DNA of 38,390 nt from Nanobdellota archaeon (lineage in GTDB: Archaea; Nanobdellota; Nanobdellia; Pacearchaeales; GW2011-AR1): NCBI GenBank assembly GCA_030640395.1, contig DAOWJK010000011.1, forward strand, positions 1 to 38,390. The letters are read 5' to 3'. The notes beneath the pieces are model-generated. The model made no database searches. It was given only the letters and a program-made list of their open reading frames with translations, and had not been told where the DNA came from. This document shows positions 9,084 to 34,616 of the stretch, one piece after another (the stretch's first letter is position 1; each line of letters begins with the position of its first letter). The translations under genes were made by a program, and so were the position numbers.

Positions 9084-9697
9084 ATCTTCTCCTTCAACTT
9101 CCCAATCTTCCTCCAACTCTTCTTCAACTTCTTATTACTTTCTTTAACAATTATCTTCAAAAATTTATCATCAACTAGAATTTTATTTTTTTCAATAATT
9201 GGAAACTCTAATTTTTCTGTACTATTCAATTCAGCAACAAATCTATTTCTCGTCGCTATTATCCCGGACCTCTTCCAACCAGCCAACTTTGCTTTATTTA
9301 AAAAAGATTGAGCATCATCCAAACTATCACAAGCAACATGTAAAATACAAGGTTCAGATTTAAATTTTATGCCCTTAGTAAACATTTTCTGGGAAAATGT
9401 TTCGGGGTACACACGAAGTGTGTTTATTCTTTTTTCCTTTTTAACAATCTCATTCAAATCCTTTTTCAACTTATTAAAACTAATCATCTCATGATAAACT
9501 TTCAAAAACAAACCTTTTTCTTTTTTATCCTGATTAATCATTAAAACAATCCTTCCAGAACACGAAGAAGTCGTGTAAAAATTCTCAAGAGAATTTATCT
9601 TCTTACATAAAGAAATTATTTTTTCATCCCATTTCTTTTTAGAAGATTTATCTAATTTAGAAAGAATAGATTTTTTTCGTTGAAGGAAATTATTCAT
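9080..9697 (-). CDS. taw3: tRNA wybutosine/wyosine-synthesizing protein 3 (Taw3/TYW3 methyltransferase)
   Basis: 205 aa. N-terminal F..RK..IL..LD.S.K...DE.I..L...IN....FYTTSSCSGRI is the TYW3 signature. Carries an in-frame element copy. Confidence 0.75.
   Translation of the reverse strand: MNNFLQRKKSILSKLDKSSKKKWDEKIISLCKKINSLENFYTTSSCSGRIVLMINQDKKEKGLFLKVYHEMISFNKLKKDLNEIVKKEKRINTLRVYPETFSQKMFTKGIKFKSEPCILHVACDSLDDAQSFLNKAKLAGWKRSGIIATRNRFVAELNSTEKLEFPIIEKNKILVDDKFLKIIVKESNKKLKKSWRKIGKLKEKI
9370..9423 (-). repeat. in-frame two-hairpin element, copy 1 (in taw3)
   Basis: + strand: TGCCCTTAGT-AAACATTTT-ctggg-AAAATGTTT-CGGGGTAC-ACACAC-gaa-GTGTGT. Stems at 9380-9388/9394-9402 and 9409-9414/9418-9423. 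Translated as NTLRVYPETFSQKMFTKG. Confidence 0.75.
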
Positions 9698-11990: not shown

Positions 11991-12707
11991 CTATTCTTTC
12001 TCCAAAATTTTACAATTAATATTTTCTTCTTCACACAACTCACAAAATTCCCTGGCATCATCCTCGCTTCCAACAATACTCCCCCAGTGCATTGGAATCG
12101 CCAAATCAGGTTTAATCAACTTCGCAGCCTCAACAGCTTCCTCTGCACTCATTGTGAACCTGCCCCCAATAGGCAGCAAAGCAACCAATTTCCTGCCCTG
12201 CTGTTTATAACCTGTAAGCTTTTGCATCTCAGGAATAACATCTGTGTCCCCTGCATGATAAATAAGAACACTATTTATTTTTATGAGATATCCTACCCAA
12301 CCCTCTTCCTTAGGATGAAAATGCTTGTCAATATTATACGCCGGCAAAACAGAAATCTTCGTGTTCCCAAAAACCAACTCATGCCCTGGCTCAACAACCT
12401 CCAGCTTAATCAGCACATCAAACCGCACAATCTTGCTCTGGCAATCAGCAGTCAAAAAAATTTTTGTCCCTTCTTTAATAATTTTCTTAATGTCAGCAAC
12501 ACTGCAATGGTCATAATGGCTGTGAGTTATTAAAATCAAATCTGCCTTCTCAGAATCATCTTTGATATTATAAGGGTCAATATAAATCACCTTGCCCTTA
12601 GTAGAAATCTTCATAGAAGATTTATCGGGGTACGCCTGTGGTGTTGAATTCTTGATCAAAAATCCTGCATGCCCTAACCATTTAAGTTCAATATCATTTA
12701 TTTTCAT
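11991..12707 (-). CDS. metallo-beta-lactamase fold hydrolase (UPF0173-like)
   Basis: 238 aa. LKWLGHAGFLI, ITHSHYDH (HxHxDH) and IPMHWG motifs. Carries an in-frame element copy near the N-terminus. Confidence 0.8.
   Translation of the reverse strand: MKINDIELKWLGHAGFLIKNSTPQAYPDKSSMKISTKGKVIYIDPYNIKDDSEKADLILITHSHYDHCSVADIKKIIKEGTKIFLTADCQSKIVRFDVLIKLEVVEPGHELVFGNTKISVLPAYNIDKHFHPKEEGWVGYLIKINSVLIYHAGDTDVIPEMQKLTGYKQQGRKLVALLPIGGRFTMSAEEAVEAAKLIKPDLAIPMHWGSIVGSEDDAREFCELCEEENINCKILEKE
12592..12645 (-). repeat. in-frame two-hairpin element, copy 2 (in MBL hydrolase)
   Basis: + strand: TTGCCCTTAGTAG-AAATCTTC-atag-GAAGATTT-ATCGGGGTAC-GCC-tgt-GGTGT. Inner stem at 12605-12612/12617-12624. Translated as STPQAYPDKSSMKISTKG, inserted between LIKN and KVIYIDP. 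Confidence 0.7.
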
Positions 12708-12798: not shown

Positions 12799-13083
12799 AT
12801 GAAATCACTTGAAGATTTTAAGATAGAGTGTCCAGCATCATGGAAAGGGTTTGGACCAGGATGGAGGACAGTAGCAGTTATTTATTTTTTTGATAATGAT
12901 GGGAGAGGTTTAAGTAAGAAAGAGTTAAGTGAAAAAATAGAATTAAATGACGATGAATTAAAGAGAGGATTAGGAGCGATGCAACAAACAAATGAAATAT
13001 TATTTAGAGAAAATGCCACTGGAAGAAGATATTATTTAGAACCTAAAACAAGAGAAGCATTTAAAGGACTTTATAATCTTTAA
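12799..13083 (+). CDS. hypothetical protein
   Basis: 94-aa ORF; possibly winged-helix-like. No firm motif. Confidence 0.35.
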   Translation: MKSLEDFKIECPASWKGFGPGWRTVAVIYFFDNDGRGLSKKELSEKIELNDDELKRGLGAMQQTNEILFRENATGRRYYLEPKTREAFKGLYNL

Positions 13084-13112
13084 TTATTCAAGACTATTTT
13101 TTTCCCACTCAG

Positions 13113-13778
13113 CTATTGACTAGACTTTGAAAGATTGTGGCACTGATTGGTAATTTTATTAAGAGTTAATTTTTCATCCATAAATATTTCGTATATTTTT
13201 TTTACATTTTGGAGTTTTTTATAAGTGTTTTCCATTCTTCTTTTCAGTAATAAAAATTCTTCTTTTAGGTTCTCTAAATATACTTCTTTGTTATCTTCTT
13301 TTATTTCTTGGTCATCTAAAATCCACAGAAAAACAGAGATTACACCTTTCCTGCTTTTCAAAATACTTAAATCACTCTCAGGAATTTGATTAGCAGAATA
13401 ATGACAAAATTCGCTAATATATCTATTAACTTCTTCACTTTTGGGAATTATTTTTTTGAACTTGTTTCTTGTAATTTGATAACTTCTACCGAACTCAATT
13501 ATTTCTTTTTCTAATTTATTTAGTAGCTGTGGTGCTTTGGGGGTTAAACCAACTTTTTTGAAATCCTCTGTATACATTATTAAATTATCCCTCATCCTAC
13601 TTGTTTCTCCTTTTCCAAATAATTCTACTATTGAATCTATGCTCTCTTCTAAATTATGTTTGTCCCACTCCTCTCCAAATCCTTTTTGTTGTGTTTCTTT
13701 TAGAGCTTTTTCTAAATTAATTAGAGACCCATAGCTTTCATGGATTACTTCACGATATTCTTCTTGCATTTTAATCAC
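13113..13778 (-). CDS. hypothetical protein
   Basis: 221-aa charged helical ORF. No motif recognised. Confidence 0.4.
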   Translation of the reverse strand: MIKMQEEYREVIHESYGSLINLEKALKETQQKGFGEEWDKHNLEESIDSIVELFGKGETSRMRDNLIMYTEDFKKVGLTPKAPQLLNKLEKEIIEFGRSYQITRNKFKKIIPKSEEVNRYISEFCHYSANQIPESDLSILKSRKGVISVFLWILDDQEIKEDNKEVYLENLKEEFLLLKRRMENTYKKLQNVKKIYEIFMDEKLTLNKITNQCHNLSKSSQ

Positions 13779-13927
13779 ATAAATTTTTAATTTATAAATC
13801 TTTTTACTCAGGGGCTCTGTTAAAAAAGTTCTTAGAGAAAAGTAAATAATCCCTGAAAACCACTCTTTAAAACTAAAAAAAGAAAAACTAAAAAAATCTT
13901 TGATAAAAAAACATTTATAATCTTTAA

Positions 13928-14428
13928 TTATTCAAAACTATTTTTTTCCCACTCCCCCATCTTCCCAGTTTTCAACTTTTTATCCAAAATCTCCAACTCT
14001 TCATAAATCCCTTCAATCAGCTCATAATTTTTTGCCTCTTCCAAACTAACCCATTTATATTCTGTTAAGGCGTGGCAAAGTTTAACATCTTCCCCAACTG
14101 GCTCTGCCCACAAACTAATTATTAACGAAGGAATATTATCTGAACGAATATAAACCAAACTCGTAACATAATTAAGATTTTTAATCTCCAATCCAACTTC
14201 TTCCATGACCTCTCTTTTGCTCAAATCCTCTAAAACATTATACCAGTGAGAAGAAGTGTCTTTTTCCCTTAAAGCATAATCCAAAACTTCCAACTTGCCC
14301 CCAGGCACAGTCCATTTTCCAGGAAATGCTTTTTCATAATCCGCCCTTTTCGCAATTAAAAATTTTCCGTCCTTAACTAAAATCACAGTAGAAGTAATAT
14401 AATGTGCTTGATTTTTATCGTATTTCAT
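13928..14428 (-). CDS. NUDIX hydrolase
   Basis: 166 aa. Nudix box elements GGKLE ... REVMEEVGLEI, with a longer than usual spacer between the GG and RE parts. Confidence 0.7.
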   Translation of the reverse strand: MKYDKNQAHYITSTVILVKDGKFLIAKRADYEKAFPGKWTVPGGKLEVLDYALREKDTSSHWYNVLEDLSKREVMEEVGLEIKNLNYVTSLVYIRSDNIPSLIISLWAEPVGEDVKLCHALTEYKWVSLEEAKNYELIEGIYEELEILDKKLKTGKMGEWEKNSFE

Positions 14429-14469: not shown

Positions 14470-15879
14470 TTACTGCAACTTCTCAACTGCCTTCGCAATC
14501 CTCAACATCTTTTCATCTTCAAACTTGTCACAAGCAACCTGCATCCCAACAGGAATTCCATCAATCTTTCCAATCGGCAAACTCAGCGCACAATTCCCAT
14601 ACAAATTATAAGGAATAGTTAAAGCATCATAAGCATACATATCCTCAACAGAAATACTCTCGCCAATCTTATGCGGCAGCTTCGGACAAACAGGAGAAAT
14701 AATGCAATCAACCTTTTCAAAAGCTTTTGCCAACTCTTTAGAAAAAAACTCCTTTGCAATCAAAGACTTATGATAATATCTTCCATGATGCTCTGCCTTG
14801 GAAATTTCACTCCCTCCTAAAATTCTTCTCATAACTTCTGGACCGCAAGCATCCTCAATTTTCTTCCCATACCTCCTGCCATCCAGTCTCCGGGTTGCAG
14901 AAAAAAACTCAACATAAACCAAAGGATAATAAGTCGCAACAGCCAACTCAAAATTAGAAATCTTTATCTTCCTAATCTCCCACCCATATTTTTCGCTGGC
15001 TTTTTTAATTCTCTCCCCAATCAAATCATCAATTCTCTTATCCCGAGACTCAAAATCCAAAACACCAACAACTAACTTCCTAGGAACTTTATTCAAGTTC
15101 TTCAAATCAATTTTCTTGCCCCGTAATGCAGCCTCGTCAGAGGTTCTCGTGCCCTCTTTGGGTATACTTTGGGGTACACCAGGCGGTGTGCTTTCCTGAG
15201 AAATAGAATCTTTCTCATCTTTGCCATAAATCACACTTAACAACAAACCAGCATCTAAAACATTTTTTGCAATAGGTCCAATCTGATCTAAACTCATAGA
15301 AAGATCAATTAAACCATAACGAGAAACAGATGAATAAGTTGGCTTCACTCCAACAACTCCGCAGTGCGACGCAGGATTTCTTATGCTCCCTCCAGTGTCA
15401 GAACCCAAAGCCATGTCGCAAAAACCCGCAGCCACAGCAGCCACACTACCCGACGACGAACCTCCAGGAACAAAACCAAAAGCAGCAGGATTTTTCGTCG
15501 CACCAAAAGCACTTGTCTCACCAGAACTCCCGCACGCAAACTCATCACAATTTGCCATTCCCAAAATAATCCCTCCCTGGTCTTTAATCTTCTTAATCAC
15601 AGTTGCATCATAACCTGCCTTATAATTCTCCAAAACTTTAGAACCACACGAAGCATGCAAACCCTTAACATTAATATTTGCCTTCACAGCAATAACTTTC
15701 CCGGCAAGTTTTGCCCCAGCATTCAGTACTTTGGGGTACACCGAGCGGTGCCCAGATTTATTTTTTTTCGCTTCTTGCAAAGCATTTGGATTCATTTCTA
15801 AAATCGCATTTATTTTTTTCCCTTTTTTATTATTTGCTTCAATTTCTTTCAAGTAGTTTTTTAGTTTTTCTGTGTTCAT
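14470..15879 (-). CDS. gatA: Asp-tRNA(Asn)/Glu-tRNA(Gln) amidotransferase subunit A
   Basis: 469 aa. Amidase signature GGSSSGSVAAVAAG...GSDTGGSIRNPASHCGVVGVKPTY..VSRYGLI...SLDQIGP. Carries two in-frame element copies. Confidence 0.9.
   Translation of the reverse strand: MNTEKLKNYLKEIEANNKKGKKINAILEMNPNALQEAKKNKSGHRSVYPKVLNAGAKLAGKVIAVKANINVKGLHASCGSKVLENYKAGYDATVIKKIKDQGGIILGMANCDEFACGSSGETSAFGATKNPAAFGFVPGGSSSGSVAAVAAGFCDMALGSDTGGSIRNPASHCGVVGVKPTYSSVSRYGLIDLSMSLDQIGPIAKNVLDAGLLLSVIYGKDEKDSISQESTPPGVPQSIPKEGTRTSDEAALRGKKIDLKNLNKVPRKLVVGVLDFESRDKRIDDLIGERIKKASEKYGWEIRKIKISNFELAVATYYPLVYVEFFSATRRLDGRRYGKKIEDACGPEVMRRILGGSEISKAEHHGRYYHKSLIAKEFFSKELAKAFEKVDCIISPVCPKLPHKIGESISVEDMYAYDALTIPYNLYGNCALSLPIGKIDGIPVGMQVACDKFEDEKMLRIAKAVEKLQ
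15116..15191 (-). repeat. in-frame two-hairpin element, copy 3 (gatA, long variant with nested extra hairpin)
   Basis: + strand: TTGCCCCGTAAT-[GCAGCCTCGTCAGAGGTTCTCGTGCCCTCTTTGGGTA]-TACTTTGGGGTACACC-aggc-GGTGTGC. The ends match copy 7 exactly; the bracketed stretch of about 36 nt is extra. Translated as STPPGVPQSIPKEGTRTSDEAALRGK. Confidence 0.75.
15711..15752 (-). repeat. in-frame two-hairpin element, copy 4 (gatA N-terminal region)
   Basis: + strand: TTGCCCCAGCATTCAGTACTTTGGGGTACACC-gagc-GGTGCC. 22/24 identity to the 24-mer core of copies 3 and 7. Read in a different frame: GHRSVYPKVLNAG. Confidence 0.7.
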
Positions 15880-17176: not shown

Positions 17177-17440
17177 TCATTGCCATGACTTCCTCTCCCC
17201 AATAATAAAATCTTTATTTTTATTCGGTGCATTCTCAAACATAATTTTCCTAAACTCATTATCACACTTTTCTCCCTCACCTTCTTCTCTTTCTCCTTTG
17301 TCTCTCTCAATCAAAGGCTCTGCCATTTTCTTATCAATCTTAGAAAGCTTTTTAGAAAAACTATCCATTATTTTTTTTGCCTGCTCTTTAATTTCTTGTT
17401 TTTCTTTTTCAGAAACCTTGTGCCATAAAAAATCTGCCAT
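17177..17440 (-). CDS. gatC: GatC-like amidotransferase subunit C (tentative)
   Basis: 87 aa. Size, an acidic central loop and the C-terminal ..F..ENAP.....F....K pattern resemble GatC. Lies in the same co-directional string as aspS and gatA. Confidence 0.45.
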   Translation of the reverse strand: MADFLWHKVSEKEKQEIKEQAKKIMDSFSKKLSKIDKKMAEPLIERDKGEREEGEGEKCDNEFRKIMFENAPNKNKDFIIGERKSWQ

Positions 17441-21560: not shown

Positions 21561-23036
21561 TCATTCCAAAAACCTCTTTATAATCCCCATCGCCTCTCTC
21601 CCATCAACTTTCCCGGCAAACTTCTTCATTACCAATCCCATGTAAGCTTTCTCAGAAAGCCCGGGCTTGCCCTTGATAATTTTCATGATTTTTTCCTCAA
21701 CATTTCCTAAATCTGCTTTTTCAAACTTGACCGCACTGCTAACATCAACTCCCCTGGCAATTCTCTCTAAACTTTCCTTTATCTGCCTCTCGCTAATTTT
21801 CCCTTTTTTATATTTCTCCAAAACAAATGCAAGAATATCTTTGTTGCCCTCTATGTTTATATCTCCTTTCATAGAGGGTACACCCTTGGGTGCTGAAATA
21901 TTTTTAATCTTCCGCGCAATCTCTTTCGGAAATATCAAAACCACTTTCGCAATTAATTTTGGGTTGCTCACAATCTCCAGCAACTCCCTAAACTCCCCAA
22001 GTTTATTCATTTTGAAAATCAACTTTATCATCTCATGATTTAATCCCTTGCTGCTCAGTTCCTCTTCAATATCTTTTCTCAATCTGGGAAGATTCTTCTT
22101 AACTTTATTAATTAAATCTCTGGAAATCCTCAGCATCGGTAAATCAGTTTCAGGATACATCCTCGCTGAACCAGGCAGAGGTCTCAAAAAACTCGTGGTT
22201 GTGTCAGGATTTCCTCTCCGAACTTCTGCAACAGACTTTTTCTTTTTAACTAAATCAACCTGCCTTTCAATTTCGTTATTAATCGTAGGAACAATTAATT
22301 TTAAATTCTGAACACCTTTCATCTCAATTCTCTTCCCATTCTTAATAGAAATACTAACATCCTGCCGAATCGTGCCAATTCCCCGACGAACTCTGCAACT
22401 TCTCAAAATCTCCCCAATCTTCAGGCTGACATTCCTGGCCTGTTCAGGAGTTTTAATATCCGGAGCAGTCACAATTTCAACAAGAGGAATCCCCAACCTG
22501 TCCAGCCGATAAATTGTTTCGTCATCTTTTCGCTCCACAATCCTCGCAGCATCTTCCTCAAGAATCACGGCATTAATTCCAACTCTTCCTTCATCTGTCT
22601 CAACATAGCCATCCTGCGCAATTAAAACAGTCCTCTGAAAACCCGAAGTATTTGAACCATCAATAACAGTTTTTCTCATAATTTGTGTTATCGGAACAAT
22701 CTTGCAATTCAGCAAAAGCGAAATCTGCAAGGCAATCTCCAGCGCATCCTTATTTATCTCATGCGGCGGCTCCTCATCCAACTCAACAAGACAAGTTGTA
22801 TCATACCCCTGATAAACAAATTGCTTATCTTTTCCCATCTCATGTTTCGCCGCAACATCAACCTCTCCAGACTCTCCTGCAACAGCATGAAGTTTTCTCC
22901 TCACAATAAAATCAGGCTCGTCTTTCCTTAACAGCGACAGACAATTACAAAATAATTTTTTAGTGTCAAGTTGCTGATGAATCTCAAGCCCGCATTTAAA
23001 TCCTAATTTTTCGTAATCTAATTTTTCTTTTGACAT
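21561..23036 (-). CDS. gatE: Glu-tRNA(Gln) amidotransferase subunit E
   Basis: 491 aa. N-terminus LGFKCGLEIHQQLDTKKLFCNC, plus VDGSNTSGFQRT and RQDVSISI motifs of GatE. Shorter than typical GatE. Carries an in-frame element copy. Confidence 0.85.
   Translation of the reverse strand: MSKEKLDYEKLGFKCGLEIHQQLDTKKLFCNCLSLLRKDEPDFIVRRKLHAVAGESGEVDVAAKHEMGKDKQFVYQGYDTTCLVELDEEPPHEINKDALEIALQISLLLNCKIVPITQIMRKTVIDGSNTSGFQRTVLIAQDGYVETDEGRVGINAVILEEDAARIVERKDDETIYRLDRLGIPLVEIVTAPDIKTPEQARNVSLKIGEILRSCRVRRGIGTIRQDVSISIKNGKRIEMKGVQNLKLIVPTINNEIERQVDLVKKKKSVAEVRRGNPDTTTSFLRPLPGSARMYPETDLPMLRISRDLINKVKKNLPRLRKDIEEELSSKGLNHEMIKLIFKMNKLGEFRELLEIVSNPKLIAKVVLIFPKEIARKIKNISAPKGVPSMKGDINIEGNKDILAFVLEKYKKGKISERQIKESLERIARGVDVSSAVKFEKADLGNVEEKIMKIIKGKPGLSEKAYMGLVMKKFAGKVDGREAMGIIKRFLE
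21844..21893 (-). repeat. in-frame two-hairpin element, copy 5 (in gatE)
   Basis: + strand: TTG-CCCTCTATG-tttatatctccttt-CATAGAGGG-TACACCC-tt-GGGTGC. 9-bp stem at 21847-21855/21870-21878. 48/50 identical to copy 6. Translated as APKGVPSMKGDINIEGN. Confidence 0.8.
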
Positions 23037-32407: not shown

Positions 32408-33541
32408 TCATAATCCCTTTTTGCCCTCTATGTTTATATCTCCTCTCATAGAGGGTACATCCTTGGGTGCCCTCTTCCCAACCAACTCAACAAACCTCTC
32501 CTTAAATTTCTCCAAATCCTTAACCTTGACTCTAACACCAACAGCCCTCTCATGCCCCCCGCCAGTCGCCCCTTCCAAATCCTTAATCACTTCCAAAACA
32601 ATTTCCCTGACATTATCTCCTCTGACAGAAATATTCACCTTGTCTCCTGAAACATAAATCACAACAATAATCTTCCCAGGAAATTCATACCTCAGCCCAT
32701 TTGACAAATCAGAACTAATGCTCAGCTCTCCTCCATACTGAAAAAACAAAACCCCCCCCTCATTTTTCTGGGACTTCGCCTTCTCCAGCAATTTTTCATA
32801 TTTCTCATTTATCTCTTTAAATTTTTTATACATAGTCTGGTTATATTTGCTCTCTTCCAAAACCTCATAAGGCGTCCTGACCTTCATCAAAAACTTCAAC
32901 ATATTTACCACATTAGTTGTTCTGTCTTTTAATCCCGCATTAAAAATTCTCCCAATCTTCCCTATCTGAGATTTAAAATAAATCTCTTTAACATTTTTAG
33001 AATCAATAATCAAGTCAGGATATTTTTCTTTAAACTCAAAATAAAAATCAGGAACAAAATGATCAGAAATGCACCCAACAACTGCTATCCACAAATCCTG
33101 TTTTCTGTTAGTTATCTGATAACACAAAGCTGTAACAGGTTCATTTGTTTTCTCTTTATTTAACAGAGGATTATAATAATTAACAAAATCAGGAATATCG
33201 CTATTCTCATGATGGTCAATCCACACCACCGGAAGATTAACCTGCCGAACCTCTTTCAAAAATTCCTCAGAAACAACATGCCTGTCCAAAATAAAAATAT
33301 AATCTGCATTTAGTTCCATGACTTTTTTAAAATAATTTCCCGCGTCCGCAGACTTCATCGCAACACCTTTTCCCCTTCCAATATATCTCTGCAGCAAAAG
33401 AAAACTACAAAGCCCGTCCCCGTCATTATCAAAAAAGAAAATCGGATTCTGTGCTTTTTCCAAATGCTCCTGAACTTCTAAAATTTGTTTTTGAGTTAGC
33501 ATTTTAATTAAAAGCAAATGTGATTTAAAAACCTTCAACAA
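32408..33541 (-). CDS. DHH/DHHA1 family phosphoesterase (RecJ-like)
   Basis: 377 aa. DNDGDG, IFILD, WIDHH and GGGHERAVG motifs. The last 20 or so residues are encoded by an element copy. Confidence 0.75.
   Translation of the reverse strand: MLKVFKSHLLLIKMLTQKQILEVQEHLEKAQNPIFFFDNDGDGLCSFLLLQRYIGRGKGVAMKSADAGNYFKKVMELNADYIFILDRHVVSEEFLKEVRQVNLPVVWIDHHENSDIPDFVNYYNPLLNKEKTNEPVTALCYQITNRKQDLWIAVVGCISDHFVPDFYFEFKEKYPDLIIDSKNVKEIYFKSQIGKIGRIFNAGLKDRTTNVVNMLKFLMKVRTPYEVLEESKYNQTMYKKFKEINEKYEKLLEKAKSQKNEGGVLFFQYGGELSISSDLSNGLRYEFPGKIIVVIYVSGDKVNISVRGDNVREIVLEVIKDLEGATGGGHERAVGVRVKVKDLEKFKERFVELVGKRAPKDVPSMRGDINIEGKKGL
32421..32470 (-). repeat. in-frame two-hairpin element, copy 6 (forms the C-terminus of the DHH protein)
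   Basis: + strand: TTG-CCCTCTATG-tttatatctcctct-CATAGAGGG-TACATCC-tt-GGGTGC. Stem at 32424-32432/32447-32455. Translated as APKDVPSMRGDINIEGK, followed only by KGL and the stop codon. Confidence 0.8.
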
Positions 33542-34616
33542 CTTCAGTTCCTAATTTCTTATATCCAAAAAAATCAGTTGTATAATTATAAGCCCCGGCA
33601 TTTAAAAAAACAATTTTATCCCCAACTTTTGGATTTTGCAATTTCACCTTATATCTAAAAATATCATCCCGCGTCGGGGAGTTTCCTTTAATTAAATAAA
33701 ATTTCCTGCCCCGTAATTCCGTACTTTGGGGTACACCAGGCGGTGCTGATTCATCATCCTCAAACTCTCCTTCAATAAGCATTTTTGTGCCAGTTAAAAT
33801 AGTGTCCAACGCACAATTATAAATCGTGGTATTAATCACAATATTGTTTTCCTGAATCTGAATAATTTCTGTCTTAAGTTTTATGCAAGGTGCAGCAAAA
33901 AATCTCCCTGGTTCAATATATGTTTCAATATTATATTCCTTTAAAAATTCTTTTGCATTTGTTATTTTTTTAAAAATATAAACCAGCACTTCTGAAACAT
34001 AACTCCGATATTTCGTCGGAAGCCCACCACCAATATTCAAAAAATCAATCCTCTCCAAACTTTCTTTTGTCAAAGAATCTTCTAACTCTTCTTTAATTTC
34101 CCACTCACTCGTATTTTGCGACTTTCTATGAATATGAACTCCAAGCTTTTCAATAAAAACATTATCTTTAATCCTCGCTATTATCTCGTTTATTTTTTTT
34201 GAAGCCATACCATAAACAAAATATTTCCCAGAACCAATCCTATGCTCCTGAAATTTCATTCTCAAAGAAAGATTAATTTTTATTTTTTCTTCTTCAATCA
34301 CATTCAAAACTCTCTCCAAATCAACTTCATTATCAACAACAAAATTTTTTATTCCCTTTTTTAAAATTTCTTTTAATTCTTCTTCTGGCTCTGCCTGAGT
34401 AAAAAACCAAATCCTTGACTTATCCTTAATCATATCTATTTCCTCTTTGGCATGAATTGAAAAATCACAATCAGAAATTTCCTGCAAAACATTTCCAACT
34501 TCCCTGTTGGTTTTATAAGAGTAAGAAATTTTTAATCCAAGATTTTTTAGAGTTTTTACTTGTTCTAAGAGTTTGGATTTTGAGAGGATGAATTTAGCTT
34601 CCATAACAAAAAACAA
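33525..34616 (-). CDS. type III PLP-dependent decarboxylase (Orn/DAP/Arg decarboxylase family 2)
   Basis: 363 aa. The PLP-lysine context SYSYKTN (compare YA.KAN) and NIGGGLP motifs. Overlaps the DHH gene start by 17 nt. Carries an in-frame element copy. Confidence 0.7.
   Translation of the reverse strand: MFFVMEAKFILSKSKLLEQVKTLKNLGLKISYSYKTNREVGNVLQEISDCDFSIHAKEEIDMIKDKSRIWFFTQAEPEEELKEILKKGIKNFVVDNEVDLERVLNVIEEEKIKINLSLRMKFQEHRIGSGKYFVYGMASKKINEIIARIKDNVFIEKLGVHIHRKSQNTSEWEIKEELEDSLTKESLERIDFLNIGGGLPTKYRSYVSEVLVYIFKKITNAKEFLKEYNIETYIEPGRFFAAPCIKLKTEIIQIQENNIVINTTIYNCALDTILTGTKMLIEGEFEDDESAPPGVPQSTELRGRKFYLIKGNSPTRDDIFRYKVKLQNPKVGDKIVFLNAGAYNYTTDFFGYKKLGTEVVEGF
33707..33746 (-). repeat. in-frame two-hairpin element, copy 7 (in PLP decarboxylase)
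   Basis: + strand: TGCCCC-GTA-attccg-TAC-ttt-GGGG-TACACC-aggc-GGTGC. The 24-mer at 33722-33745 is identical to 15165-15188. Translated as APPGVPQSTELRG. Confidence 0.8.

Follow-up and report, generated by a model that had tools for sequence, protein, structure and literature searches.

The 38,390-nucleotide stretch of DNA analyzed here (hereafter, the window; contig DAOWJK010000011.1 of the Nanobdellota archaeon assembly GCA_030640395.1) carries on its minus strand, at 14470–15879, a gatA gene encoding the amidase-signature subunit of a tRNA-dependent amidotransferase, and the open reading frame (ORF) of this gene runs through two short GC-rich inserts. We propose that both inserts are copies of a non-autonomous, modular family of GC-rich hairpin elements that is mobile in Pacearchaeota-type DPANN archaea, an explanation that we regard as probable. 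The sequences show precise insertion without target duplication, fixed orientation, a flanking AAR, modular nesting and recent copying. The window is AT-rich (GC about 32%), and its source assembly comprises 536 kb in 56 contigs and is 68.6% complete.

Two inserts in gatA and their empty sites in relatives

An earlier note, made from the letters of the window, had pointed to two GC-rich copies within gatA that are free of stop codons and read in different frames. Both are present: the ORF is open across each of them (...STPPGVPQSIPKEGTRTSDEAALRGK... and ...GHRSVYPKVLNAGAK...) in distinct phases, and a 16-nt core, TACTTTGGGGTACACC, is found three times in the window, where chance would predict 0.11 occurrences. 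The copies lie where the note had located them, with boundaries revised after comparison with relatives to 15713–15751 for the N-terminal copy and 15118–15189 for the other, both on the minus strand. The former (site 1) is a 39-nt element with the sense strand GCACCGCTCGGTGTACCCCAAAGTACTGAATGCTGGGGC (GCACC...GGGGC) that adds about residues H44–A56 to the protein. The latter (site 2) is a 72-nt composite with the sense strand ACACC-GCCT-GGTGT-A-CCCC...GGGGC that encodes T231–G254, and it consists of a 39-nt element and a 33-nt module (15132–15164, minus strand) placed after GTA in the loop of the second hairpin. The module reads TACCCAAAGAGGGCACGAGAACCTCTGACGAGG on the sense strand and CCTCGTCAGAGGTTCTCGTGCCCTCTTTGGGTA on the plus strand, and adds about residues I239–E249. 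As the note had observed, the ends of the composite are those of a copy in a pyridoxal phosphate (PLP)-dependent decarboxylase gene (33707–33746, minus strand; 39 nt), which serves as the reference short copy. The extra segment that the note had put at about 36 nt is exactly 33 nt long, since GCAG belongs to the host loop; its CCTC-GTCA-GAGG hairpin and the near-repeat CTTTGGGTA / CTTTGGGGTA beside it are real.

For the analysis of junctions, the gatA DNA of nine relatives (designated by locus) was aligned by codon. Site 1 is empty in L001 and L019 (...GG^AAAACTTGC), and the window has its 39 nt exactly at the marked point, where L002 has a 33-nt variant. The empty state of site 2 is a 15-nt loop, CAGGAAAGTGAAAAA, in L002, L003 and L019. 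The closest relative, L001 (88% identity), has a plain 39-nt element there; L018, L021 and L022 have a 51-nt element of another subfamily at the identical position; and L017 and L020 have the 51-nt subfamily plus one or more nested modules. Inserts of 39, 72, 51 or 111–114 nt are accordingly found at one position among the relatives and the window. The note's suggestion of two independent insertions is borne out by the occupancy of the sites, with L001 filled only at site 2, L002 only at site 1 and L003 at neither, and the comparison of alleles that it had proposed reveals presence/absence polymorphism at both. No target duplication was found at the exact junctions between empty and filled gatA sites. 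The locus offers a rare complete series, from empty site to simple element to element with nested module, which fixes the junctions to the base and shows that modules no longer than 33 nt act as independent units.

Among the 120 nearest GatA homologues (62–88% identity), site 2 is empty in 106 and filled in 14, so that GatA does not conserve these extra residues as parts of its own, a possibility that the note had raised against itself. A tree of these homologues, inferred after removal of the insert columns, requires 13 changes to account for the 14 filled proteins, at least nine of them forced by well-supported branches, and the filled proteins cluster no more than shuffled labels do; site 1 needs seven changes. 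The repeated use of one nucleotide position would follow from the permissive loop, whose five codons offer only one to three targets of the form ^AAR. A third insertion site in GatA, after KAFK (about residue 388 of the window protein), is filled in P0023, P0025 and P0043 (locus L022:501-1895) by short family members read in another phase (..GTQGCTPQGG..).

The identity of the 469-residue product is supported by matches to Pfam Amidase (E = 2.8e-107, 360 bits) and to GatA structures, the GatA chains of GatCAB in the PDB being its best solved relatives (E = 1e-84), and its nearest database proteins are labelled by their sources as Pacearchaeota or Nanoarchaeota GatA. It has the amidase signature fold and motifs (catalytic Lys, GGSS(G/S)GS and the nucleophile Ser in DTGGS), and K66, G139–S145 and S165 are invariant in the 120 homologues. 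An AlphaFold2 model computed from the alignment of these 120 sequences (mean predicted local distance difference test score, pLDDT, 84.8; predicted template modeling score 0.88) superposes on GatA of GatCAB structures with a TM score of 0.85; an earlier model from 28 sequences (pLDDT 64) was too poor to use. Mapped onto the model, as the note had recommended, both inserts fall in low-confidence coil of an otherwise good prediction and contribute no core secondary structure. Site 1 (about residues 44–56) is coil between helix 33–41 and strand 62–66, the strand that carries the invariant catalytic Lys66, and site 2 (residues 231–254) is coil after helix 207–217. The segments below pLDDT 50 are 44–53, 245–248 and 331–335, and blocks within 231–250 average 50–56.

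Both sites are length-variable among homologues, as might be expected if the extra residues were ordinary lineage-specific loops of GatA and not inserted DNA. We find this hardly credible, given the 106 homologues that are empty at site 2, the recurrence of the same DNA in unrelated genes in three reading phases, and the length of the insert-free linker at site 2, which at about 32 residues matches that of Thermotoga maritima GatA (about 31); HMMER alignments to the latter protein break exactly at site 2.

A family of hairpin elements and its nested module

On the sense strand, a unit of the family has the form RCACC-N3/4-GGTG-TA-CCC(C)-[variable stem-loop]-GGG(G)C, usually followed by AAR; in it, a GTAC(C) joint links the short hairpin CACC-N3/4-GGTG to a variable one, which CCC(C)/GGG(G) closes. 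About 31 copies occur in the 536-kb genome, and in about 29 of them a long ORF lies on the strand that reads the element in sense; of the 39 copies in four other genomes of the same family, 37 have their longer ORF in sense. The core pattern was found in 22 of the 201 genomes of the order, all belonging to one taxonomic family, with very uneven counts (30 here, then 14, 11, 7, 7 and so on), and a reversed-pattern control returned essentially none. A mobile element would be expected to be distributed in this way.

Beyond gatA and the decarboxylase gene, the window holds 48-nt members in a gene for a GatB/GatE-family subunit (21844–21893) and at the 3' end of a DHH phosphoesterase gene (32421–32470), a 51-nt member in a metallo-beta-lactamase (MBL)-fold hydrolase gene (12593–12644) and a member in a TYW3 methyltransferase gene (9370–9421), all on the minus strand. 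Measured by sequence identity, the elements are far more conserved than their host genes. The copy in the MBL-hydrolase gene is identical at 50 of 51 positions to the gatA site-2 element of L021, while the GatA of L021 (P0012) is 70% identical to that of the window, and the 72-nt composite of gatA matches a copy in an enolase gene (G000 contig C21:5929-6000) at 71 of 72 positions. The enolase composite is in frame, between GGGAHSNSE and PDFQEFLLIP and beside a conserved active-site loop region, a place that is less obviously permissive than the gatA loops.

The 33-nt module corresponds exactly to the gap in the alignment of the window gatA with that of L001. Its core, GCACGAGAACCTCTNACGAGG, has about 10 copies in the genome, always co-oriented with the host element: the same composite is found in the enolase gene and a related one on contig C5, and the module also lies inside 48-nt hosts on C26, C46 and C8 and inside a 51-type host on C1. 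On contig C3 it stands alone within an ORF, as ATACCCAAGGAGGGCACGAGAACCTCTAACGAAGC, and encodes the same IPKEGTRTS.EA peptide. When species-representative genomes were scanned for exact matches, the core turned up in 19 contigs from at least 12 further DPANN assemblies; some of these copies stand alone within ORFs, some are nested in hosts, and some lie in non-coding DNA next to tRNA-like sequence. At loci L037 and L041, from other DPANN metagenome-assembled genomes, it directly adjoins tRNA-like T-arm sequence (GGTTCGATCCC, GGTTCAAATCC) in non-coding DNA; modules are therefore not limited to ORFs. Nested modules in the family add 33, 42 or about 30 nt. The solo, nested and other-genome occurrences mark the 33-nt segment as a module in its own right.

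Whether the site-2 copy grew through internal duplication or because a second insertion entered its loop was left open in the earlier note. Given the plain 39-nt element of L001 and the recurrence of the module as a unit, we favor a second insertion to local duplication, the genuine 9-nt near-repeat at the module's edge notwithstanding. An origin on the spot, the neighboring CTTTGGGGTA region having undergone internal duplication or slippage, could account for that near-repeat, CTTTGGGTA / CTTTGGGGTA, directly adjoining the segment and for the lack of a clean target duplication or terminal repeat around the 33 nt. It nonetheless seems unlikely to us, because the likeness to the flank extends to only about 9 of the 33 nt and the rest of the module, GGCACGAGAACCTCTGACGAGG, recurs about 10 times in the genome, including the solo copy on C3 and copies at other positions in 48-nt and 51-nt hosts, besides the 19 contigs of other DPANN archaea. 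Other kinds of module, for example GGGATGACCTCTGAAGATGGAGGCC (C5:18022 region, C49:1848 region), are found in place of the standard hairpins or joined to them, and the family seems to be built combinatorially from small hairpin cassettes.

Reading frame, strand and proposed mobilization

Reading phases 0, 2 and 1 are used by 20, 8 and 3 copies, respectively, and the encoded peptides differ between phases (APKGVP..., HRSVYP..., GTQGCTP...). With all three phases in use and different peptides encoded, what is conserved is the nucleic acid, not the protein. Between the fixed landmarks RCACC and GGGC, 28 of the 31 copies here have a length divisible by three (33, 39, 48, 51, 54, 72, 81 and 90 nt), as do only 22 of 32 in the four other genomes; since the remaining copies keep their ORFs open, the true ends must shift by 1–2 nt in some subfamilies. 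Taken together, we infer that a form of survivorship operates in which only in-frame, stop-free copies in tolerant loops persist. On the 3' side, AAR flanks 25 of the 31 copies against a background of 12%, and 27 of 32 in the four other genomes; AAR is also present at empty sites and thus belongs to the target.

The strand antisense to the genes folds better than the sense strand in 24 of 31 copies (mean −19.8 versus −17.0 kcal/mol; Wilcoxon p = 6e-5, with p-values overstating the evidence because copies within subfamilies are not independent), and in the four other genomes it does so in 22 copies versus 9, a consistent direction. The antisense form is 5'-GCCC...GGGTACACC...GGTGY, and its better folding arises because the stems carry G.U/G.T wobbles on that strand, as in CGCC/GGTG. 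For the gatA composite, the antisense strand is predicted to adopt a three-hairpin fold (−29.5 kcal/mol, z = −2.2), while the sense fold is unremarkable (z = −0.5). Different subfamilies have different, perfectly paired stems, indicating compensatory change (GCCCTCTATG/CATAGAGGGT, AAAAATATTC/GAATATTTTT), and one copy has CACT/AGTG instead of CACC/GGTG. The excess of antisense folding argues against a role at the mRNA level and points to a strand-specific process at the level of DNA.

These results also bear on the idea of an RNA-level removal or skipping of the elements, in the manner of introns or translational bypass, which would yield a GatA without the extra residues. GC-rich structured inserts in AT-rich coding sequence do recall the bypass elements of yeast mitochondria, and the constant sense orientation of the copies would suit such a process. 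We nevertheless judge it very improbable: multiple-of-three lengths and a stop-free frame are unneeded in sequence that is excised, two hairpins side by side cannot form a bulge-helix-bulge (BHB) motif, the antisense strand forms better stems than the mRNA, and an Rfam search with the element gave no match. The better-conserved antisense structure, the strict orientation and the compensatory changes that preserve stems could instead mean that the host retains the repeats for some function on the antisense strand, as an antisense RNA, a protein-binding motif or a replication or transcription signal, their genic location being incidental. We think there is little chance of this, since distribution among closely related genomes is patchy and burst-like, orthologous sites are polymorphic for presence and absence, near-identical copies lie in unrelated genes and there is no conserved position relative to gene starts or ends.

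As the sequences show, elements enter DNA precisely, immediately 5' of AAR on the sense strand and without target duplication, and the 33-nt module, a separate unit belonging to the same system, landed after GTA within the loop of the second hairpin. Copies would survive in genes only if their length is divisible by three, the frame used contains no stop and the loop is permissive, and they would then be read through as extra loop residues, in GatA as 13 residues ahead of the Lys66 strand and 24 residues in the linker after helix 207–217. The active form may be single-stranded DNA from the antisense strand, since it is there that the stems carry G.T wobbles. The absence of target duplication, the hairpins at both ends, the one favored strand and the fixed short flank would also be expected of IS200/IS605-type single-strand hairpin transposition, and mobilization might, tentatively, be provided in trans by an HUH/Y1 transposase of the IS200 type. 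One such gene is present on contig C16 (C16:47-454, locus L004), encoding 135 residues with an HxH motif (93 bits). A GC-rich hairpin (CCTCGCCCTTCAGGGCGGGG) lies just downstream of it.

Besides the non-independence of the folded copies, several observations weigh against parts of this proposal. The orientation bias is not explained by stop codons: avoidance of stops was considered as its cause and rejected, since of the 93 frames on each strand 62 are open in sense and 61 in antisense. Nor does the bias have an obvious fit to the lagging-strand rule of IS608. Reuse of the same position could come from gene conversion or precise loss and not from repeated insertion, and it is from open frames only that we infer translation of the inserts as loop residues. 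A Y1 gene is found in 6 of the 14 genomes with at least two element copies versus 46 of 201 overall, a weak co-distribution; one 89%-complete genome has 14 element copies and no Y1 gene; and no element core was found beside the Y1 genes at 13 Y1 loci. We keep the C16 transposase only as a weak candidate for the driver of the elements.

Local genes and comparison with known systems

GatA appears to be a necessary enzyme in this organism. The window also has a GatB_N-family gene and, 1.3 kb from gatA, a probable gatC (17177–17440, minus strand) with a weak match to PF02686 (20.7 bits, below the Pfam cut-off). No asparaginyl-tRNA synthetase above cut-off was found in the 68.6%-complete assembly, where the sole asnS-like match is a neighboring class-II synthetase that falls below the asnS cut-off. 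Within this incomplete assembly, the set of genes would fit the indirect pathway. Elsewhere in the window, two copies of a 41-nt direct repeat (98% identical; 13070–13110 and 13914–13954, 844 nt apart) flank a 221-residue ORF (13113–13778) that sits between NUDIX and MBL-hydrolase genes, which are neighbors of each other in the relative L002; the ORF with its repeats looks like an inserted cassette.

The genomes of DPANN archaea are among the smallest of any cells, yet dozens of selfish inserts appear to be tolerated here in genes of translation and central metabolism. If the proposed mechanism is true, the inserts provide a natural map of permissive loops in conserved enzymes, and they counsel caution in the use of indels in DPANN marker proteins for phylogeny, some of which may be recurrent mobile-element insertions and not signs of shared ancestry. 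Searches of the accessible literature for a description of the family in DPANN, Pacearchaeota or Woesearchaeota found nothing specific. It is conceivable, though we hold it with reserve, that the elements constitute a distinct class of mobile DNA adapted to coding sequence, with modules of at least 33 nt, strand-specific and duplication-free integration before AAR, template-strand single-stranded DNA, recursive stacking and repeated hits on the same permissive codon in independent lineages; such a class, possibly Y1-driven, would be a generator of new protein loops in ultra-small archaea.

Several known systems share some of these features. The 'byp' elements of Magnusiomyces mitochondria and the hop in gene 60 of phage T4 break the frame and are skipped by the ribosome. 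Like byp elements, those of the gatA type are short, GC-rich, structured inserts spread across AT-rich protein-coding genes; unlike them, they keep the frame and have no stop in the frame used. BHB introns, which occur in archaeal protein genes such as cbf5 (PMC2738675), are likewise short, lie in archaeal coding sequence and come and go between relatives. We reject membership in this class: the predicted folds are two adjacent hairpins with no BHB motif, lengths are multiples of three and the frame is open. With MITEs (miniature transposable elements bearing inverted repeats) the family has in common that it exists in many short, non-autonomous copies with a patchy distribution. One woesearchaeal genome is reported to rank with the most MITE-dense in archaea, and about 89% of archaeal MITEs are intergenic (PMC11602168), whereas the gatA-type elements are overwhelmingly intragenic and fall below the usual MITE range of 50–800 bp. 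Assignment to the MITEs is rejected as well, given that exact junctions have no target-site duplication and the RCACC/GGGGC ends form no meaningful terminal inverted repeat.

Similarities are also seen with repetitive extragenic palindromes (REPs) and the bacterial interspersed mosaic elements (BIMEs) that accompany REP-associated tyrosine transposases (RAYTs), and with palindrome-associated transposable elements (PATEs) derived from IS200/IS605: a size of 20–50 nt, hairpins, no target duplication, strand-specific orientation, a short preferred flank and a Y1/HUH gene in the genome. REPs are extragenic and have a GTAG or CGTC head (PMC3733652). The gatA-type elements differ in being intragenic, with an internal GTAC and no GTAG head, and the Y1 gene here is of the IS200 type, unflanked by elements and weakly co-distributed with them. 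Membership in the REP/RAYT system was rejected on the intragenic location and on the lack of elements beside the IS200-type Y1 gene.

The Rickettsia palindromic elements (RPEs), reportedly described by Ogata et al. in 2000 and summarized in PMC10969869, are the closest counterpart. RPEs are about 100–150 bp long and are described as encoding a conserved peptide (PMC10969869). Both are selfish palindromic repeats inserted in frame in unrelated housekeeping genes of a reduced, AT-rich genome, where they are read through and thought to occupy surface loops compatible with protein function. In-frame palindromic insertion is thus shared with RPEs, and the size, conserved peptide and Rickettsia hosts are not; size, host and phase use set the family apart from RPE-1 to RPE-10, as compared by description only. 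The gatA-type elements are archaeal, measure 33–54 nt per unit, use all three phases, are modular and recursively nested, and are distinguished further by strict sense orientation, the AAR flank and better antisense structure. If the mechanism that we propose is true, the phenomenon known from RPEs extends to archaea.

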